Source of the DNA: an uncultured Chloroflexia bacterium
GTDB lineage: Bacteria; Chloroflexota; Limnocylindria; Limnocylindrales; CSP1-4
DNA: 64,000 nucleotides
NCBI GenBank assembly: GCA_963743815.1
Contig: CAVURB010000010.1
Coordinates: forward strand, 134,099 to 198,098
Direction: 5' to 3'
The notes beneath the pieces are model-generated. The model made no database searches. It was not told where the DNA came from and saw only the letters and a program-made list of their open reading frames with translations. Of the stretch, positions 1,133 to 42,771 are shown piece by piece. Positions within the stretch are counted from its first letter, which is position 1. Every line of letters begins with the position of its first letter. A program made the translations under genes and the position numbers.

Positions 1133-2725
1133 TCAGTTCGCGATACGGCGTTGCTTGATGCGCGTGGCATCGGCAGCGAACGGACCGCCACCTTGGGGAT
1201 GGGTCGCGACGAGCGGCAGCATCGCCCCCGGGAACTCGCCGACCGACGATCGATAGTCGAGGTTGAGCGCGCTCAGGCCGTCGCGGACCCGCTCTGCGGC
1301 CGCGAGCCGCCACGCGTCGTCGATGCCGTCGAGATCCGTCAGCTCGAGCGCGACGGCGGGTCGCGGCGTGCCGGCCGCGTCATCCACTACCGAGAGCATG
1401 AACGAATGCAGGCGCGGGGCGATCAGCGCATCGCCGTATAGCACGGACTCCACGTCCTCGGGGTAGATGTTGGATCCCATGACGCTGACCGTCGCATCAC
1501 GCCGGCCGTGGATCCACAGGAACGGCAGCGGGATCGGTCGCGCCCAGGGGAGCGGTCCGCGCGGTCCGTGGACCTCGGGCGATCGGCCGAGGTCGTCCAG
1601 GTCGAAGCCGAATCCGCGCAGCGTCTCGCGCACCTGCTGATACGGGACGATCCCACCCAAATCGTGGACGTTGTACCGGATCCGTGGCGCCAGGAGGTCC
1701 AGCCGCGACACCGTGCAGATGACCTCACCGCGATCGTTGACCTCCATGAAGTGGATCAGCGGGTTGTACTGGAACACCATCGGGAGCCGAGAGTCCGACC
1801 CGAAGAGGGCGCGCCCGATGTCGGGCCGGGCCCGGGCAAGCCGCCGGACCGCGATGCTGACGGGCGACTCGCCGGCCATGCCGATCTCGATATCGGTGGC
1901 ACCGTAGCCCGAGTAGACCGACACGAACCGATCCAGCAGGATGTCGCGCAGCTCCTCGGTCATGCCCTCGCCGCCCACGAGCCCGTGGATCTCGTAGTCC
2001 TCCCAAGGGAATCCGCGTCGCGTGCCCTCGTCGATGAGGTGCTTGAGGAACGGGGGATAGCCTGAGATGAGGAAGCGGTAGTTCGGGCCGAGGACCTCGA
2101 GCGTGGACAGGATCTTGTCGAGGTCCGGTCCCACGGACTTGACGATGCCGTGTCGGAGCATCCCCAGGCTCATGTTGAATCCGGCCGCCCAGGCGCCCAT
2201 CGAGAAGGCGTTGATGGTCACGAGTGGCCGGGCGCCGAACGCGTAGCGCGCGAAGAAGCCGATGTTGCGGTGCGCGACCTCGCGCTCCCGCCGGCTGCGG
2301 ATCCAGTTGTACGGCGTGCCCGTCGAGCCGCTCGATTCATCGATCGACGTCCCGGGGAAGGGCACCGTGCCGCCGATGCAGCGCTCCATCAGGGAGTAGC
2401 GGTCGACATACGCTCCCTTGTCCGTCTCCGGCAGACGTCGAAGGATGCCGAGCGGAAAGAGCCCAGCGACGCCGATACCTGCTTCGGCGAGGTATGAGCG
2501 ATAGGCCGGCACCGAGCGTGACGCACGCCAGGCGGCCCGTTCGGCCCGGAGCTGGCTGATCCCGCGCAGGAGCCAGGGTGGCGACCACGTGAAGAGCCGC
2601 ATGAGCCAGCCGTATCGCAGGCCCACGGTCTTGAAGGTCACGTCGAGCGGAAACAGCCAGAGACCGCGTCCGACCCCGACGAACGACGCCGCCGCGTGCC
2701 GTCCGATCCGTCGCACCTGCGCCAT
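1133..2725 (-). CDS. Adenylate-forming enzyme, phenylacetate-CoA ligase / coenzyme F390 synthetase-like family
   Basis: 530 aa ORF with AMP-binding motif SSGSTGTPY; true start may be the internal Met near 2602. Confidence 0.6.
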   Translation of the reverse strand: MAQVRRIGRHAAASFVGVGRGLWLFPLDVTFKTVGLRYGWLMRLFTWSPPWLLRGISQLRAERAAWRASRSVPAYRSYLAEAGIGVAGLFPLGILRRLPETDKGAYVDRYSLMERCIGGTVPFPGTSIDESSGSTGTPYNWIRSRREREVAHRNIGFFARYAFGARPLVTINAFSMGAWAAGFNMSLGMLRHGIVKSVGPDLDKILSTLEVLGPNYRFLISGYPPFLKHLIDEGTRRGFPWEDYEIHGLVGGEGMTEELRDILLDRFVSVYSGYGATDIEIGMAGESPVSIAVRRLARARPDIGRALFGSDSRLPMVFQYNPLIHFMEVNDRGEVICTVSRLDLLAPRIRYNVHDLGGIVPYQQVRETLRGFGFDLDDLGRSPEVHGPRGPLPWARPIPLPFLWIHGRRDATVSVMGSNIYPEDVESVLYGDALIAPRLHSFMLSVVDDAAGTPRPAVALELTDLDGIDDAWRLAAAERVRDGLSALNLDYRSSVGEFPGAMLPLVATHPQGGGPFAADATRIKQRRIAN

Positions 2726-32151: not shown

Positions 32152-32798
32152 CTAACCGAGGCGCCAGAAGTCGCCGGTGAGGCCGAGCCGATCGAGCACA
32201 GCCTGGTTTTGCTCCCGCGAGTGCGGTCGCCAGTCAGGATCGAGGCGGTCCCACCACCAGGCCTCGGCGAGCTCGGCGGCCTTCGTGATCGACATGGTCG
32301 CGCCGGGCGGACGACCAGCGAGCCATCGGGAGAGGTGTGCTTCCGACCGGAAGACGAGCATGGTCCCTCACGTGTACCCGATGTCGTCCCACCAGGTGCG
32401 TGCCGGCACGAGGACATGGAAGACCGGGGCCGGGTCCGTCGGGCGATAGTCGTGGACCTCAAGATCGACCGAGTCGCCACAGTCGGCGCACGTCGTGTGG
32501 ATCATCGAGTCTGTACGCAGGACGACACCGATCCCGAACGCGTCCCATCCACAATTCGCGAACCAGGACCGACCGGCAGCCTCCACCCGATGCGGCGTCT
32601 CCACCGCGGAGAACGGGTTCGCCATCCGCAGCTGCCCCGCACCGTCGAGGACGAGCGCATGGGCGTCGTGCAATCGCTGCCAGGTGGTGACGACGACGTC
32701 GCTCCCCTGCCCCGTGGCAGCGGCGACCTCATCGATCGCTCGGCGCTCGACCGAGCTCGGCGAACAACCGATAGCTCGCGTTCCGGACGGCCAGATCG
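32152..32798 (-). CDS. MerB-like (alkylmercury lyase family) protein with in-frame TGA at the Cys159-equivalent position; candidate selenoprotein
   Basis: Catalytic motif WFANCGWD (Cys96/Asp99 equivalents of MerB); TGA at 32368-32370 aligns with catalytic Cys159 (…DIGYT-U-GTMLVFRSE… vs MerB …SFCCHVHFFAS…); downstream reading frame shows purifying selection; conserved hairpin follows the TGA; a 1-nt indel near the N-terminus (~32740). Confidence 0.6.
32328..32367 (-). other. SECIS-like hairpin immediately 3' of the UGA (mRNA GGGACCAUGCUCGUCUUCCGGUCGGAAGCACACCUCUCCC)
   Basis: Lower stem GGGA/UCCC, apical stem CUUCC/GGAAG with GGUC tetraloop about 15 nt after UGA; sequence is nearly identical in the paralog at 40329-40368. 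Confidence 0.5.
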
Positions 32799-32840
32799 TC
32801 AGGCGTCATCGCCGCAAAGGGTACGTGGTCCGGCCCCGAT

Positions 32841-34953: not shown

Positions 34954-35764
34954 GTGGCAGGCGGACGCGCTCCGGGTGACGCTTCCGTCGATATCGGCTA
35001 CGTCGGGCACGCCACGGTGCGCCTCGACGTCGCGGGGACGTTGATCCTGACCGACCCGTTCCTGCGCGCGCGCCTGGGGCCATTGGAGCGACACGGACCG
35101 ATGCCGGACGAGGTGGCCGATCTGGACATCGACCTCGTGCTGATCTCGCATGGGCACCCGGACCACTTCGACCCGGAGTCGCTCGCGTCGCTCAGGGGTT
35201 CGCCGACGGTCGTGGTCCCGCGCGGGCTCGGCGCTCGCGCGCGACAGGTGCTCCACGGGGACGTGATCGAGGTCGCGGCCGGGGAACGACTCTCGATCGG
35301 CGGCGTCACGGTCGACGCCGTCCCGGCCTCCCACTGGATCTCGCCGGGCGCCCCTCGCGCACAGCCGATCGGGTACGTCGTCGATGCCGGTCCGCGGATC
35401 TACTTCGCGGGCGACACGGGGCCATTCGCGGGTCTCGACCGGGTGCTCGCCGACGTCGACGTGGCGCTGCTTCCCGTCTGGACATGGGGTCCGCACCGTG
35501 GGCCCGGCCACCTTGGCCCGAAGTCGGCCGCCCAGGCCCTGGCCGCCGCCGGCCCGACGGTGGCGATCCCCATCCACTGGGGCACGCTCTACCCGCGGCG
35601 GCTGCACCGGCGTCTGGTCCGGCCCGTTGCGCGAGCCCGGCGACCGATTCGCCGACCACGCGGGTCGACTGGCGCCCGCGACGACCGTGGAGGTCCTGCG
35701 CCCGGGCGAGGACACGATCGTTCGCGTCGGTCGACGCGGTCAGGACGGTCCGTCGGGGCCGTAG
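34954..35764 (+). CDS. MBL-fold metallo-hydrolase (apparent C-terminal frameshift)
   Basis: LISHGHPDHFD metal-binding motif; C-terminus recovered in the second frame ending at 35764. Confidence 0.7.
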
Positions 35765-35774
35765 ACTCCGCGTG

Positions 35775-36977
35775 ATGGAGGGGTACGAGCTGACCGAGGC
35801 GGCCGCACGCTGCGGTCTGGGCGTCGACGAGCTGCAGCGGCTGGTCGCCCTCGGCGTGATCCGGCCCAGCGTCGGCGATCGGTTCAGCCGGGGCGACCTG
35901 CGTCGGGCCAGCCTGGTGACGAGTCTCGCGGCCGCGGGCATCTCGCTCGAGGGGCTCGCGCGCGGCGATCCGCGACGACCAGGTGTCGCTGGCCTTCCTC
36001 GATGCGACCGCGTTCGACCGGTTCGCCCAGCTGTCAGAGGTGACGTTCGCGGAGATGGCCGACCGGTCGGGCGTGCCGCTCGACTTCCTCCAGTACATCC
36101 GCGAGGCCTCGGGTTCTGTGGCCCCGGAGCCTGGCGACCGCATGCGCGACGCCGAGCTGCCGATCGTCACGTGGCTCCAGACGGCCCTCGGCGCCGGGAC
36201 CCGCCCGGCAGCGACGCTCCAGATGATCCGCGTCCAGGCCGACGGCCTGCGCCGCATGGCGGAGACGGAGGCGGCGTGGTGGCAGGCGGAGGTGCTCGGG
36301 CCCGGCGGCGGCGGGCGGCCAGCGGACGGACGAGGTCCTGGGCGCCGACTTCGGCGATCGGATGAGCGCCCTCACCGAGCAGGCGGTGATCTCGATGTAC
36401 CACCTCCAGCAGACGAAGGCGTGGACCAGCAATCTCGTGGAGGGGGTCGAGGCGATGCTCGCCGGCGCAGGGTTGCACAGCCGCCTGGACCGGCCACCGG
36501 CGATGTGCTTCCTCGACATCACCGGCTACACGCAGCTCACCCAGGAGCACGGTGACGCCGCGGCCGCCGAGCTGGCGGACCGGCTCAGCGGGATCGTGGG
36601 CCGGGCGTCGGTCAAGTACGGCGGGCGGGCCGTCAAGTGGCTCGGCGACGGCGTCATGTTCCACTTCCCCGACCCGGGGCAGGGCGTGCTCGCGGCGATC
36701 GAGATGGTCGCAAGCGTGACCGGGGCCGGTCTGCCGCCGGCGCACGTGGGGCTCCACGCCGGCCCGGTGATCTTCCAGGAGGGCGACTACTACGGGGCCA
36801 CGGTCAACATCGCGTCGCGGATCGCGGACTACGCCCGGCCGGACGAGGTGGTCGTCAGCCAGGCGGTCGTCGATGCCGCCGACGGCGCGCCGGTCACTGT
36901 TCCGCTCGATCGGGCCGGTCGCGCTGAAGGGGGTCGCCGCGCCACTGGACCTGTACGTGGCCACGCGGCCGGCCTAG
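35775..36977 (+). CDS. Adenylyl cyclase with N-terminal MerR-type HTH (multiple apparent frameshifts)
   Basis: MEGYELTEAAARCGLGVDELQRLVALGVIRP MerR HTH; cyclase domain MCFLDITGYTQLT…VKWLGDGVMFHF…; assembled from three frames. Confidence 0.65.
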
Positions 36978-37001
36978 TCGCCGAGGCATCGAGGAGGACA
37001 C

Positions 37002-37430
37002 ATGGGGTACGTGATCGGGGCGACGGTCGAAGCCGATGTGGATCCCGCCGCGGTCTTCGCTCTGTACATGGACCCGTCGACTTGGCCGGTCTGGGGCCAC
37101 AACGTCCGTTGGGCGCATGCCGACGGCCCGCTCGTCGAGGGCGGGATCGTCGAGATCCGCCCCAGATATCCGGTCACCTACAACTGCCGGATCCTGCGCC
37201 TGGTGCCGGGCTCGCTGCTTCGCATCGAGGTAAAGCCGAAAGGCATGACGATCGTCAACGTCTACGAGATCGAGCCGACCGCCGGCGGGTGCCGCGTCCG
37301 CCACGCCTTTGAGATCTCTGGCCCGCTTTCCGGACCCCTTCGATGGTTCGGCGTCGCCCGCCTCTACCAGTCGTCACTCGGCGACGAGATCCGCCATTGC
37401 ATCGAGCTCGCCACGTCGAGGTCCGCCTGA
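37002..37430 (+). CDS. SRPBCC (polyketide cyclase/START-like) family protein
   Basis: 142 aa ORF, START-like beta-grip pattern. Confidence 0.55.
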   Translation: MGYVIGATVEADVDPAAVFALYMDPSTWPVWGHNVRWAHADGPLVEGGIVEIRPRYPVTYNCRILRLVPGSLLRIEVKPKGMTIVNVYEIEPTAGGCRVRHAFEISGPLSGPLRWFGVARLYQSSLGDEIRHCIELATSRSA

Positions 37431-37459
37431 ACGTCTCCCCCACTGGGATCCCGCCCGAA

Positions 37460-38473
37460 CTAGTCGCCCGAACGCTGCATCGCGGCGAGGCTCCCGAGCG
37501 CGGCCGGATCGAGCGCATCCTGCGACACGGCAGCGACCCGGGCGCGGGTGCGGGCCCGCAGCGTGGCGGTCCTGACGCCGTCCCGCTGGCCGGCGCGCTC
37601 GCCGACGACGGCACCGGGGCCGATCTCGGCGATCTCCTCGCCGTCCCGCACGACGACGAAGATCCCATCGAGGATCAGGAACACGTCCGTGCCGGGTTCA
37701 CCCTGCGGACGAGCTCCTCGTCCGGCCGCGAGGGTGCGGATCTTGGGCTTGGCCCCGTCGTCCATGATCGCGCCGGACAGCGAGCGCTCCAGCGCCAATT
37801 CGACCGCCGCGACGATGGCCGGCGAGTCCTGCTCGCCCCATGGGGTTCGATCGCCGTGCGCGTGGTTGAACCACTGCGCGAAATCGATGGTGCCGGACTT
37901 CTGGACGAGCCGTCCTTCGTGGTCATAGATCCAATGGCGCGGGAAGGGGCTGGCGCCCACGAGCTCGTGACTCGAGCTGCCGTCGGCGTTCAGGGTCAGG
38001 GCGAGGGTCGTCCACGCGATCGACGGCCAGAACTGGACGAACGGCTTGTGCGGGACGGGCCGGGGTGTCGGGAGCCCCATCCGCCCACCGATGGTCTGCA
38101 CGAACCGGGCCGACGTTTCGGTGATCTCGGGCGCCGGCTGGATGTCAGGCAGCTGGACCGCGGGGAACCGCAGCGCAGCCGGCCCCACTTTGACCGTCGT
38201 GGCGCCGATGTGGCCCTGGCCGAGATGACCGGCGTCCACGATGCGCCCGTCCTCCACCTCGATGAACGCCCGAAGCTCGTTGGCCTCGCGGAAGCGGTCG
38301 CTCGTCCGCAGCGCCTCCAGATCCTCGATCCGATCCGGCGGTGGCTCGTCGTAGTGGGTCACCCCGAGCTCGAACGTGATCTTCGCCGGGCCGGTGATCG
38401 CCTCGGACGGGATCCAGGAGACGGCGATGACGGACAATTCGAAGCGCTGTCGGACCACGGGCGTAGACCTCAT
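37460..38473 (-). CDS. Protein with N-terminal domain of unknown function and C-terminal cyclic-nucleotide-binding domain
   Basis: C-terminal …DGEEIAEIGPGAVVGERAG…RTATLRA… phosphate-binding cassette of cNMP-binding domains. Confidence 0.65.
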   Translation of the reverse strand: MRSTPVVRQRFELSVIAVSWIPSEAITGPAKITFELGVTHYDEPPPDRIEDLEALRTSDRFREANELRAFIEVEDGRIVDAGHLGQGHIGATTVKVGPAALRFPAVQLPDIQPAPEITETSARFVQTIGGRMGLPTPRPVPHKPFVQFWPSIAWTTLALTLNADGSSSHELVGASPFPRHWIYDHEGRLVQKSGTIDFAQWFNHAHGDRTPWGEQDSPAIVAAVELALERSLSGAIMDDGAKPKIRTLAAGRGARPQGEPGTDVFLILDGIFVVVRDGEEIAEIGPGAVVGERAGQRDGVRTATLRARTRARVAAVSQDALDPAALGSLAAMQRSGD

Positions 38474-40142: not shown

Positions 40143-40483
40143 CTAGCCGAGGCGCCAGAAGTCGTCCGTGAGGCCGAGGCGATCGAGGATCGCCTGGTTC
40201 TGCTCGCGTGTGTGCGGCCGCCAGTCGGGATCGAGGCGGTCCCACCACGAGGCTTCCGCGAGCTCGGCGACCTTCGTCAGCGGGATGCTGGCGCCCGGCT
40301 GGCGGCCGGCGAGCCAGCGGGAGAGGTGTGCTTCCGACCGGAAGACGAGCATCGTCCCTCAGGTGTGACAACGTCACTCCCCTGACCCGTGGCGGCCGCG
40401 ACCTCGTCGACGATCGGCGCGCGTCCCAACTCGGCGAACAGCCGATACGTCGCGTTCCGGACAGCCAGGTCCTCAGGCGTCAT
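40143..40483 (-). pseudogene. Internally deleted paralog of the MerB-like gene (N-terminal 45 aa + C-terminal 71 aa; retains TGA and SECIS-like hairpin)
   Basis: About 90% nt identity to 32152-32385 and 32695-32798; ~310 bp including the NCGWD catalytic region is missing; junction at short gtg microhomology; N and C parts are out of frame. Confidence 0.6.
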
Positions 40484-41372: not shown

Positions 41373-42771
41373 CTACGCGGTCGGCGGCTCCACGTTGTGG
41401 TTCAGGTGGAAGACGTTGGTCGGGTCCCACGTGCGCTTCAGGGCGCGGAGACGTTCGAGCTTCGCGTCACCGTAGCTGGCGCGGGTCACGTCCGGCCCGG
41501 CATCCGACAGCTCGTTGATGTACCGGCCCGGAAGGAGGTCCGGCTCGACGATCGCCATCGCCCGCCGTACCCAGTCCAGGTTCGCCTGATCGAGCGCCGG
41601 ATCGGACCAGGCGGTGTCGGGGCTCACATCGAACGGCGCGGTCGCGCCCGGTGAAGGCCGTCGCGTCGTCCGCGACGCGCCCGATCGCGCCGCCCATCGC
41701 CGTCACCGAGATGCTGCTGTCGCCCGGGACGTGCTCCACGTGCTCGACGAACGCATCGAGGACCGCGGGCGAACAGTCGGCGATGTAGCCGCCGAGGATG
41801 GCGGTCCGCGAACCCCACGCGAGTTCGAGGTCGCTCGACCGCTGCGCGTCGAGGTACGGCTCGCTCGTGGCGGTCGCCGAGGCCGGCTTCGGGTCCATGG
41901 TGGAGCGGAGCGAGATCTCGCTCGACGTCCTCCCCTGCCCCACTGTGGTTGTACGAGATGACGACGATCGGCCGGCCGGCGACCGATTCCGGATAGTCCG
42001 CGGCCGGCTCGGCGAGCGCGACGGTGAAGATGGCGGCGATCGTCTCGGGCGCCGTCGCCACGAACTCGCGAAAGATCGGCCAGAGCTCGTGGATGTCGGT
42101 CGCGGGGTGGATCCGGACGCCCCGGTGGAGCGTCCCCGGAGAACGGATGCAGCTCCAGCTCCAGGCTCGTCACGATGCCGAAGTTGGCACCGGCGCCGCG
42201 GAGTCCCCAGAACAGCTCCGGCTCGTGCTCGACATCTGCTCGCACCGTGCGCCCGTCGGCGGTCACGAGCTCGACTGCGCGAAGGCTGTCGATCGTCAGG
42301 CCGAACCGGCGCTGCAGCCGTCCGACGCCGCCGCCGAGCGTCAGCCCGGCGACGCCCGTGTGACCGACGACCCCGACCGGGCAGACGAGGCCGTGCTCCT
42401 GGGCCGCGATGTCGAGTGTGCCGAGGAGTGCTCCGCCACCGGTCCGCGCCAGCCGCGCGCGTCGGGTCGACGGTCACCTCGTTCATCCGCCCGAGGTCGA
42501 TGACGAGACCACCGTCGGTCGTCGAATGCCCGACCGCGCTGTGGCCGCCGCCGCGCACGGCGATCTCGAGCTCGCGCTCACGGCCGAAGCGGATGGCGGC
42601 CGCAACGTCGTCGACGCTCGACGGCCGGACGATCAGCGCCGGCCGACGGTCGAACACCGCGTTCCAGACGCGTCGAGCGTCGTCGTACGTGGCGTTCTCG
42701 GGCGCGATGACGTCGCCGGCGAAGTGGCGCCGGAAGGCGTCGAGCTGGGCGAGCGTCGGGGCGGTGGTCAC
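41373..42771 (-). CDS. FAD-linked oxidase (BBE/VAO family), multiple apparent frameshifts
   Basis: FAD-binding PCMH domain (…[10 protein letters not shown]…), C-terminal BBE domain (…[14 protein letters not shown]…); pieces in three frames. Confidence 0.65.

Follow-up and report, generated by a model that had tools for sequence, protein, structure and literature searches.

Selenoprotein catalogues list an "alkylmercury lyase MerB-like protein" (PMC9312934, PMC13188914), and one selenocysteine (Sec) form of organomercurial lyase MerB, SaoL, has been predicted. In SaoL, Sec162 forms part of a C-U motif and aligns with the catalytic Cys159 of MerB; the gene belongs to a nine-gene SAO locus found in strictly anaerobic hosts (Haft and Gwadz, 2023, bioRxiv 10.1101/2022.07.06.499078). 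Here, we analysed a MerB-like gene on the minus strand of a 64,000-nucleotide stretch of DNA from an uncultured Chloroflexia bacterium (contig CAVURB010000010.1, positions 134,099 to 198,098; hereafter the window). An earlier note on this stretch had proposed that an in-frame UGA in the gene encodes Sec, and its author knew of no characterised Sec-containing MerB; SaoL, whose Sec occupies this same catalytic site, had already been published. Our results make it highly likely that the UGA is a Sec codon and that the product is a MerB-like carbon-metal lyase with Sec in place of the second catalytic thiol (Cys159). The proposal of a Sec codon with a selenocysteine insertion sequence (SECIS) directly 3' of it is borne out by a conserved stop codon, equal constraint on both sides of it, a frozen hairpin, Cys-containing homologues and a switch to TAG in one genus.

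Translation of the minus strand placed the TGA (32370-32368) in frame within the MerB-like gene, hereafter copy 1, and it is followed by 71 sense codons up to a TAG at 32154-32152, in agreement with the open frame of about 70 codons reported before. The gene start had been placed at 32798, and this needed correction, as the ATG actually lies at 32809-32807. Copy 1 also carries one extra base at about 32739, seen relative to a syntenic contig (L001), the closest relative (L004) and a second copy in the window (copy 2). This base, which had been missed, means that the first 24 codons are read in a different frame from the rest. Copy 1 is 96% identical to L004 and 98% identical to the database protein P0001.

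The repaired translation of copy 1 matched the Pfam MerB family PF03243 with 96.7 bits (E 1.3e-27; gathering score 27). The match extended over profile positions 1-124 of 126 and therefore spans the TGA. The segment WFANC86GWD89, which holds a C86-x-x-D89 dyad, aligned with the Cys96/Asp99 pair of MerB. In MerB2 (PDB 5C17, GGTCKQIHYFSS), the TGA column corresponded to the second catalytic Cys, and in a weak BLASTP alignment (E 0.014) with R831b MerB it corresponded to Cys159. Family membership, the dyad and the Cys159 position had all been claimed from the letters alone and were upheld by these alignments. In place of the second catalytic Cys of the MerB family, this clade has UGA, and full-length homologues have Cys.

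Structural comparison was performed with a close Cys-containing homologue, P0122, as a stand-in for the window protein. Its AlphaFold2 model (mean predicted local distance difference test score, pLDDT, 83.9; predicted template modelling score, pTM, 0.78) was searched against the PDB with Foldseek. Only MerB and MerB2 structures were matched, among them all of the top 11, with template modelling (TM) scores of 0.56-0.72, E values down to 2e-9 and about 200 aligned columns. Since the match runs over about 200 columns, the 70 residues beyond the Sec site are, according to this model, part of the MerB fold. A separate PDB profile search with alignment A4 covered the N-terminal 146 positions only and so has no bearing on the Sec site.

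Residues C86, D89, H131 and an additional C107-x-x-C110 pair were invariant in 80 family genes. The pair lies in TTCADCGD (codons 107 and 110, about 32490-32482) and the histidine in FHVLVPA (about 32418-32416); the aligned stretch of MerB2 is without the C-x-x-C pair. Judging from this pattern, C107-x-x-C110 and His131 may constitute a second metal site or a structural site.

The conservation of the internal stop was examined among proteins, genomes and metagenomes. A protein search gave 2365 relatives, and the best 120 were examined: 112 are called as proteins of 145-147 residues and seven more are longer calls covering 67% of the query, and every one of these stops precisely at the TGA, with 68-98% identity. 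Protein P0095 (239 residues), considered as a full-length form, was rejected as a frameshifted read-through. When representatives of clusters at 50% identity were searched instead, 1761 relatives were obtained; among the best 149, 73 end exactly at the Sec site and 38 are full length, most of the latter with Cys at the Sec column. A genome scan with one genome per species yielded 80 loci in 80 species. The hosts were mostly Chloroflexota (Limnocylindria), and the others belonged to Gaiellaceae, Thermoleophilia, Acidimicrobiia, Dormiibacterota, Methylomirabilota and Eisenbacteria. At every one of these loci the tblastn alignment passes through the stop in a single frame. TGA occupies the Sec column at all 80 loci as well as in both window copies, and it is followed by 69-71 conserved codons that end in FWRLG and the terminal stop. 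The terminal stops of the same genes served as an internal control and were mixed (TGA 44, TAG 32, TAA 1). A metagenome scan anchored on the hairpin alone, which allowed any codon at the Sec site, returned 120 stretches, of which 119 had TGA and none had a sense codon; the remaining stretch was an unrelated chance match. Thr precedes the Sec site in 97% of the family genes, giving a T-U-[G/S] motif. Within the window, TGA also ends four Pfam-supported genes, which indicates that UGA is not globally reassigned.

Two orthologues carry an extra in-frame stop, each a sequencing error or a sign of a decaying copy: L011 in the N-terminal region (APTVG-stop-VAAR) and L063 just before the Sec site (QQW-stop-EDIVFT, TGG to TGA). 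L011 and L033 come from the same metagenome-assembled genome, VAR_78_metabat_359, which therefore holds two family members, a case of multiple copies as in the window. On one metagenome contig (L164, positions 1488-1519, plus strand) the same TGA and hairpin occur in the context T-U-TQMNLFRSEEHV, with flanks that differ from the family (PAWRWRENWANT upstream, RRWNLFEPGSEPG downstream). From its sequence, L164 may represent a second Sec-containing subfamily with the same SECIS.

Coding constraint was equal on the two sides of the stop, with a median pairwise ratio of non-synonymous to synonymous substitution rates (dN/dS) of 0.27 upstream and 0.27 downstream. Between copy 1 and L004, eight synonymous and one non-synonymous differences were found downstream of the TGA, and no indels occurred between the TGA and the remaining reading frame. 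These results bear on whether the TGA is simply a nonsense mutation of a Cys codon (TGC or TGT to TGA) in a decaying gene. The window itself offers some grounds for this view, as a frameshift interrupts copy 1, a large part of copy 2 is deleted and neighbouring genes are also broken. It is refuted at the family level, since 80 species and 119 metagenome contigs share the same TGA and the downstream dN/dS is 0.27; the stop is present, as TAG, in isolate genomes of Geodermatophilus as well. A pseudogene explanation is scarcely credible, and the earlier note was right to set it aside.

Part of the earlier case had rested on copy 2, and this part was weakened. Downstream of the TGA the two copies differ by 19 synonymous and 11 non-synonymous changes (dN/dS 0.15), so the differences are indeed mostly synonymous; copy 2, however, is a deletion remnant, and its divergence from copy 1 is ancient. 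Its N-terminal 39 codons are joined to the TGA, the SECIS and the C-terminal 71 codons, and the 316-nucleotide deletion removed the whole catalytic core, with a junction at a CAC(C/G)TG microhomology (CACCTG/CACGTG). The N-terminal part is also out of frame with the C-terminal part. By these features copy 2 is a dead remnant. Because its synonymous divergence (dS) from copy 1 is 0.49, as large as that between orthologues in other species, the comparison indicates that copy 2 either goes back to an ancient duplication or was acquired separately, and is not a recent duplicate.

Bacterial SECIS (bSECIS) elements are defined in published criteria by a 4-nucleotide loop starting with GG, a stem of 5-7 base pairs, the spacing of the loop from the UGA and a minimum free energy (MFE) of at most -7.5 kcal/mol. 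The hairpin CUUCC-GGUC-GGAAG (32353-32340) starts 14 nucleotides past the UGA, and its loop starts at 19 nucleotides. Its GGUC loop, stem length and 19-nucleotide spacing fit these criteria. The MFE of the 42 nucleotides after the UGA was -10.8 kcal/mol in the window and at or below -7.5 kcal/mol in 81/81 sequences (-7.5 to -22.9, mean -14.0), and the apical hairpin was contained in the MFE structure in 75/81 sequences. The loop of the E. coli fdhF SECIS is also GGUC. A SECIS-like hairpin conserved between the two window copies had been proposed before, and both parts of that proposal stand: the hairpin sequence in copy 2 is identical, and its five base pairs and loop are invariant across 79 distinct sequences.

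The codon usage within the hairpin further separates constraint on the RNA from constraint on the peptide. The hairpin encodes FRSE, for which Phe is TTC in 79/79 sequences, Arg is CGG in 79/79, Ser is TCG in 80/80 and Glu is GAA in 78%. Other conserved Arg columns of the family use four to six codons each, the commonest at no more than 58%, and another conserved Glu column is GAG in 81%. On this comparison the constraint on the hairpin is at the nucleotide level and not at the protein level, with synonymous sites frozen in the hairpin codons only.

Homologues with Cys at the Sec column provided a natural comparison. The close relatives P0005, P0121 and P0122 have Cys aligned with this column, so that Cys homologues of the kind that the earlier note had suggested searching for do exist. 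At the genomic level, L003, L084 and L085 have a Cys codon (TGC or TGT) at the Sec column; they are 73-74% identical to one another, and their nearest relatives are stop-codon forms. The hairpin codons are lost in all three: L003 has TCT and ACC in their place, L084 has TTT-CTC-GCC with the peptide also altered to FLAE, and L085 has TTT-CGC-TCC. In these alignments the SECIS-type hairpin is coupled to the stop, being frozen only in the stop-codon forms.

A second natural comparison was found in three cultured Geodermatophilus species (G. saharensis, SYSU D00814 and SYSU D00766), in which the Sec column is TAG, at locus positions 10442-10444 in L086, L088 and L089/L090, and the hairpin is intact. 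Members of Geodermatophilaceae have been described as using a tRNA-Sec with the anticodon CUA and TAG at the Sec sites of formate dehydrogenase (FDH), UGSC-motif and AhpC selenoproteins (PMC5330540, citing Mukai 2016). Taken together with this report, the TAG behaves as expected of a Sec codon and not of an ordinary stop or re-initiation signal.

Several observations weigh against a Sec codon. Three codons past the stop lies an invariant ATG, from which gene callers predict an open reading frame (ORF) of 69 residues. Neither the window nor about 1.4 Mb of related flanking sequence yielded selA, selB, selD or a tRNA-Sec. Folding of single sequences gave z scores of about 0, no better than shuffled controls, and the upper stem never varies, hence there is no compensatory covariation. 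Copy 1 is, in addition, frameshifted as assembled. Concerning the fold, the 61-nucleotide MFE structure of the window sequence is without the apical hairpin, and a lower helix is 84% paired, with covariation no better than shuffles; given the z scores, the support for the hairpin is comparative and not thermodynamic.

The invariant ATG opens the way to a split gene, in which the TGA would be a true stop, the C-terminal 69 residues would be made by re-initiation at the ATG, and two polypeptides would together form the MerB-like fold. The ATG is present in 84/84 sequences, a GAGG motif overlaps the TGA-GGN in 47/81, and gene callers annotate a pair of 146 and 69 residues. Yet 34/81 sequences are without any Shine-Dalgarno-like motif, and Met or another hydrophobic residue occupies the same position in the Cys forms too. 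The internal stop is TGA in 80/80 genes compared with 57% TGA at the terminal stops, and the sole genus with TAG is Geodermatophilus, whose family is the one reported to have tRNA-Sec(CUA). Between the stop and the ATG lie two codons, which specify small residues only and vary synonymously, never by indels. A split gene would also delete the catalytic residue itself and leaves unexplained both the frozen synonymous sites of the hairpin and the loss of the hairpin in Cys forms. We consider it very unlikely.

The Sec machinery was sought in several ways. ARAGORN detected no tRNA-Sec in the window and 60 related loci, an Rfam scan of the whole window gave no match, and a tblastn search of the window and loci L001-L090 with the E. 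coli SelA, SelB and SelD proteins gave only weak matches to GTPase domains. Four long "tRNAs" called by ARAGORN (83-95 nucleotides; Cys, Gly and Arg) were unconfirmed by the Rfam tRNA model at its gathering score and are probably false positives in GC-rich coding DNA. For Geodermatophilaceae, Sec machinery has been described (PMC5330540). As the Sec competence of the window's host is inferred, hairpin-stimulated read-through by a near-cognate or suppressor tRNA, with the UGA recoded to Cys or Trp, has to be weighed. It is highly improbable: the hairpin fits the bSECIS model with its GG-first 4-nucleotide loop, the residue concerned corresponds to the metal-binding Cys of MerB, a position at which exchange of Cys and Sec is the known pattern, and TAG replaces TGA in Geodermatophilus, a member of the family with a reported tRNA-Sec(CUA).

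Whether copy 1 itself is functional depends on how the frameshift at 32739 is read. Relative to L001, which is 92-94% identical, the window has eight single-base indels in 5.1 kb. One is that at 32739, and the other seven (35960, 36300, 36896, 37436, 37444, 37706 and 37725) lie within 35735-38379 (2.6 kb), where they break up a cyclase-type gene whose counterpart in L001 is an intact ORF of 399 residues. A flavin adenine dinucleotide (FAD)-linked-oxidase-like gene at 41373-42771 is spread over at least three frames. These scattered indels suggest that the assembly is prone to indels or, alternatively, that genes in this region are decaying. The family could be a selenoprotein family of which the window copy was recently inactivated, the insertion at 32739 being real and the host perhaps without the function. 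In favour of this, the assembled sequence does contain the frameshift, which lies outside any homopolymer, and the second copy in the window is clearly dead. Against recent inactivation stand the seven further single-base indels that break an otherwise intact gene and the dispersed oxidase-like gene, a pattern typical of an indel-prone assembly, as well as the predominance of synonymous differences from L004 downstream of the TGA. Recent inactivation is unlikely. Because the assembly looks indel-prone, we regard the frameshift as most likely an artefact, an assembly error. Copy 1 is an orthologue in which the predicted Sec codon, the SECIS and the downstream frame are intact.

Clustering of the gene neighbourhoods across 85 loci identified no conserved neighbour, and function can therefore not be inferred from gene context. 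No merA, merR, merT or merP was found near the gene in the window or at the 85 loci. The window neighbours include glyoxalase, hydrolase-cyclase and metallo-β-lactamase (MBL) genes, among others. The absence of mer and sel genes from the window had been remarked on before, and none was found here either. The positions of the gene and its parts are collected in Table 1.

Table 1. Positions of the MerB-like gene, its parts and related features; window coordinates except for the rejected tRNA calls, which are given by locus.
Feature	Position	Strand	Remarks
MerB-like selenoprotein gene (predicted), copy 1	32152..32809	-	218 residues once the one-base insertion is repaired; Sec would be residue 147
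Start codon ATG	32807..32809	-	same start in P0001, L001 and L004
Extra base (one-base insertion), frame shifted after codon 24	32739	-	from alignment with L001, L004 and copy 2
Cys86 codon TGT, equivalent of MerB Cys96	32551..32553	-	invariant 80/80; aligned with catalytic Cys of MerB2/MerB
Asp89 codon GAC, equivalent of MerB Asp99	32542..32544	-	invariant 80/80; aligned with MerB
UGA, probably read as Sec147, equivalent of MerB Cys159	32368..32370	-	TGA in 80/80 species, both window copies and 119/119 metagenome matches
Putative SECIS region: apical hairpin and weaker, lineage-variable lower pairing (GGGA/UCCC in this lineage)	32328..32367	-	
Apical hairpin of putative SECIS, CUUCC-GGUC-GGAAG	32340..32353	-	loop starts 19 nt past UGA
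True stop TAG	32152..32154	-	relatives all end at the same column, after FWRLG
Copy 2, remnant of second copy	40143..40483	-	without 316 nt; TGA 40361-40359 and hairpin 40344-40331 kept
Rejected ARAGORN calls	L066 15641-15735; L069 13428-13522; L082 240-330; L060 7306-7388		

The findings can be combined into a mechanism. On meeting the UGA, the ribosome would find the hairpin within the coding sequence, which would act as a bacterial SECIS and recruit the SelB.GTP.Sec-tRNA(Sec) complex, the binding of SelB being assumed. Sec147 would then be inserted and translation would continue for 71 codons, yielding a protein of 218 residues with the MerB fold and an active site of Cys86, Asp89 and Sec147. 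An organometal would be bound through Cys86 and Sec147, and Asp89 would protonate the leaving carbon as in MerB. The reaction would be protonolysis of a carbon-metal bond with Sec as a metal ligand, and the substrate may be an organomercurial or another organometal. Selone-based mimics of MerB cleave Hg-C bonds faster than their sulfur analogues (PMC11639659), which makes a selenolate at the metal-binding site chemically sensible.

If these predictions hold, the thousands of family entries that databases cut at residue 146/147, each leaving an orphan ORF of 69 residues, would have a 218-residue selenoprotein as their true product. This would include the entries of cultured Geodermatophilus that NCBI names "organomercurial lyase", such as those of GCA_054050055.1 and GCA_054049915.1, which are called as truncated proteins of 147 residues. 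One possible but rather doubtful role is that of a selenoenzyme, abundant but unannotated in aerobic Chloroflexota and Actinomycetota of soil, that cleaves carbon-metal bonds without a mer operon, conceivably as a high-affinity demethylase of methylmercury or other organometal(loid)s at trace levels. If this were true, the availability of selenium in soil would be tied directly to organometal turnover.

Compared with canonical MerB (R831b MerB, PDB 3F0O/3F0P; Bacillus megaterium MerB2, 5C17), the clade has the same fold, with a helical domain at the N terminus, and keeps the catalytic Cys and Asp residues. It differs by the predicted Sec in place of Cys159, by a sequence identity of only about 20% and by the lack of merA, merR, merT and merP nearby. 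Its scores against the NCBIfam organomercurial lyase models NF033555 and NF009710 were 40.5 bits (cutoff 200) and 42.1 bits (cutoff 193), and NCBIfam release 20.0 returned no model whose cutoff the copy 1 protein passes. With the UAG selenoproteins of Geodermatophilaceae the family has in common that its Geodermatophilus orthologues carry TAG and a SECIS-like hairpin; the passage on those proteins names FDH, UGSC-motif and AhpC proteins and no MerB-like protein (PMC5330540). The orthologues would add another natural switch of a Sec codon from UGA to UAG, in cultivable strains.

The closest described system is SaoL (NF040728). Both groups have the MerB fold of PF03243, a UGA-encoded Sec predicted at the Cys159 column and the equivalents of Cys96 and Asp99, and in both the database entries are typically truncated at the UGA. 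The protein studied here, however, scored 50.3 bits against the SaoL model, whose cutoff is 140. It has T-U-[G/S] where SaoL has C-U, about 70 residues past the Sec site compared with about 50, and an additional invariant CxxC pair. Neither a nine-gene SAO locus nor any other conserved neighbour accompanies the gene. It occurs in Chloroflexota (Limnocylindria) and Actinomycetota of soil, among them aerobic Geodermatophilus strains in culture, whereas the hosts of SaoL are strict anaerobes. A literature search found no published description of this clade. On the strength of these comparisons, the idea of a Sec-containing MerB is not new, given SaoL, and the present clade is new and distinct from it: SaoL, the sole other predicted Sec-MerB, is restricted to rare anaerobes that have a dedicated locus, whereas this clade is widespread in aerobic soil bacteria and stands alone in the genome.

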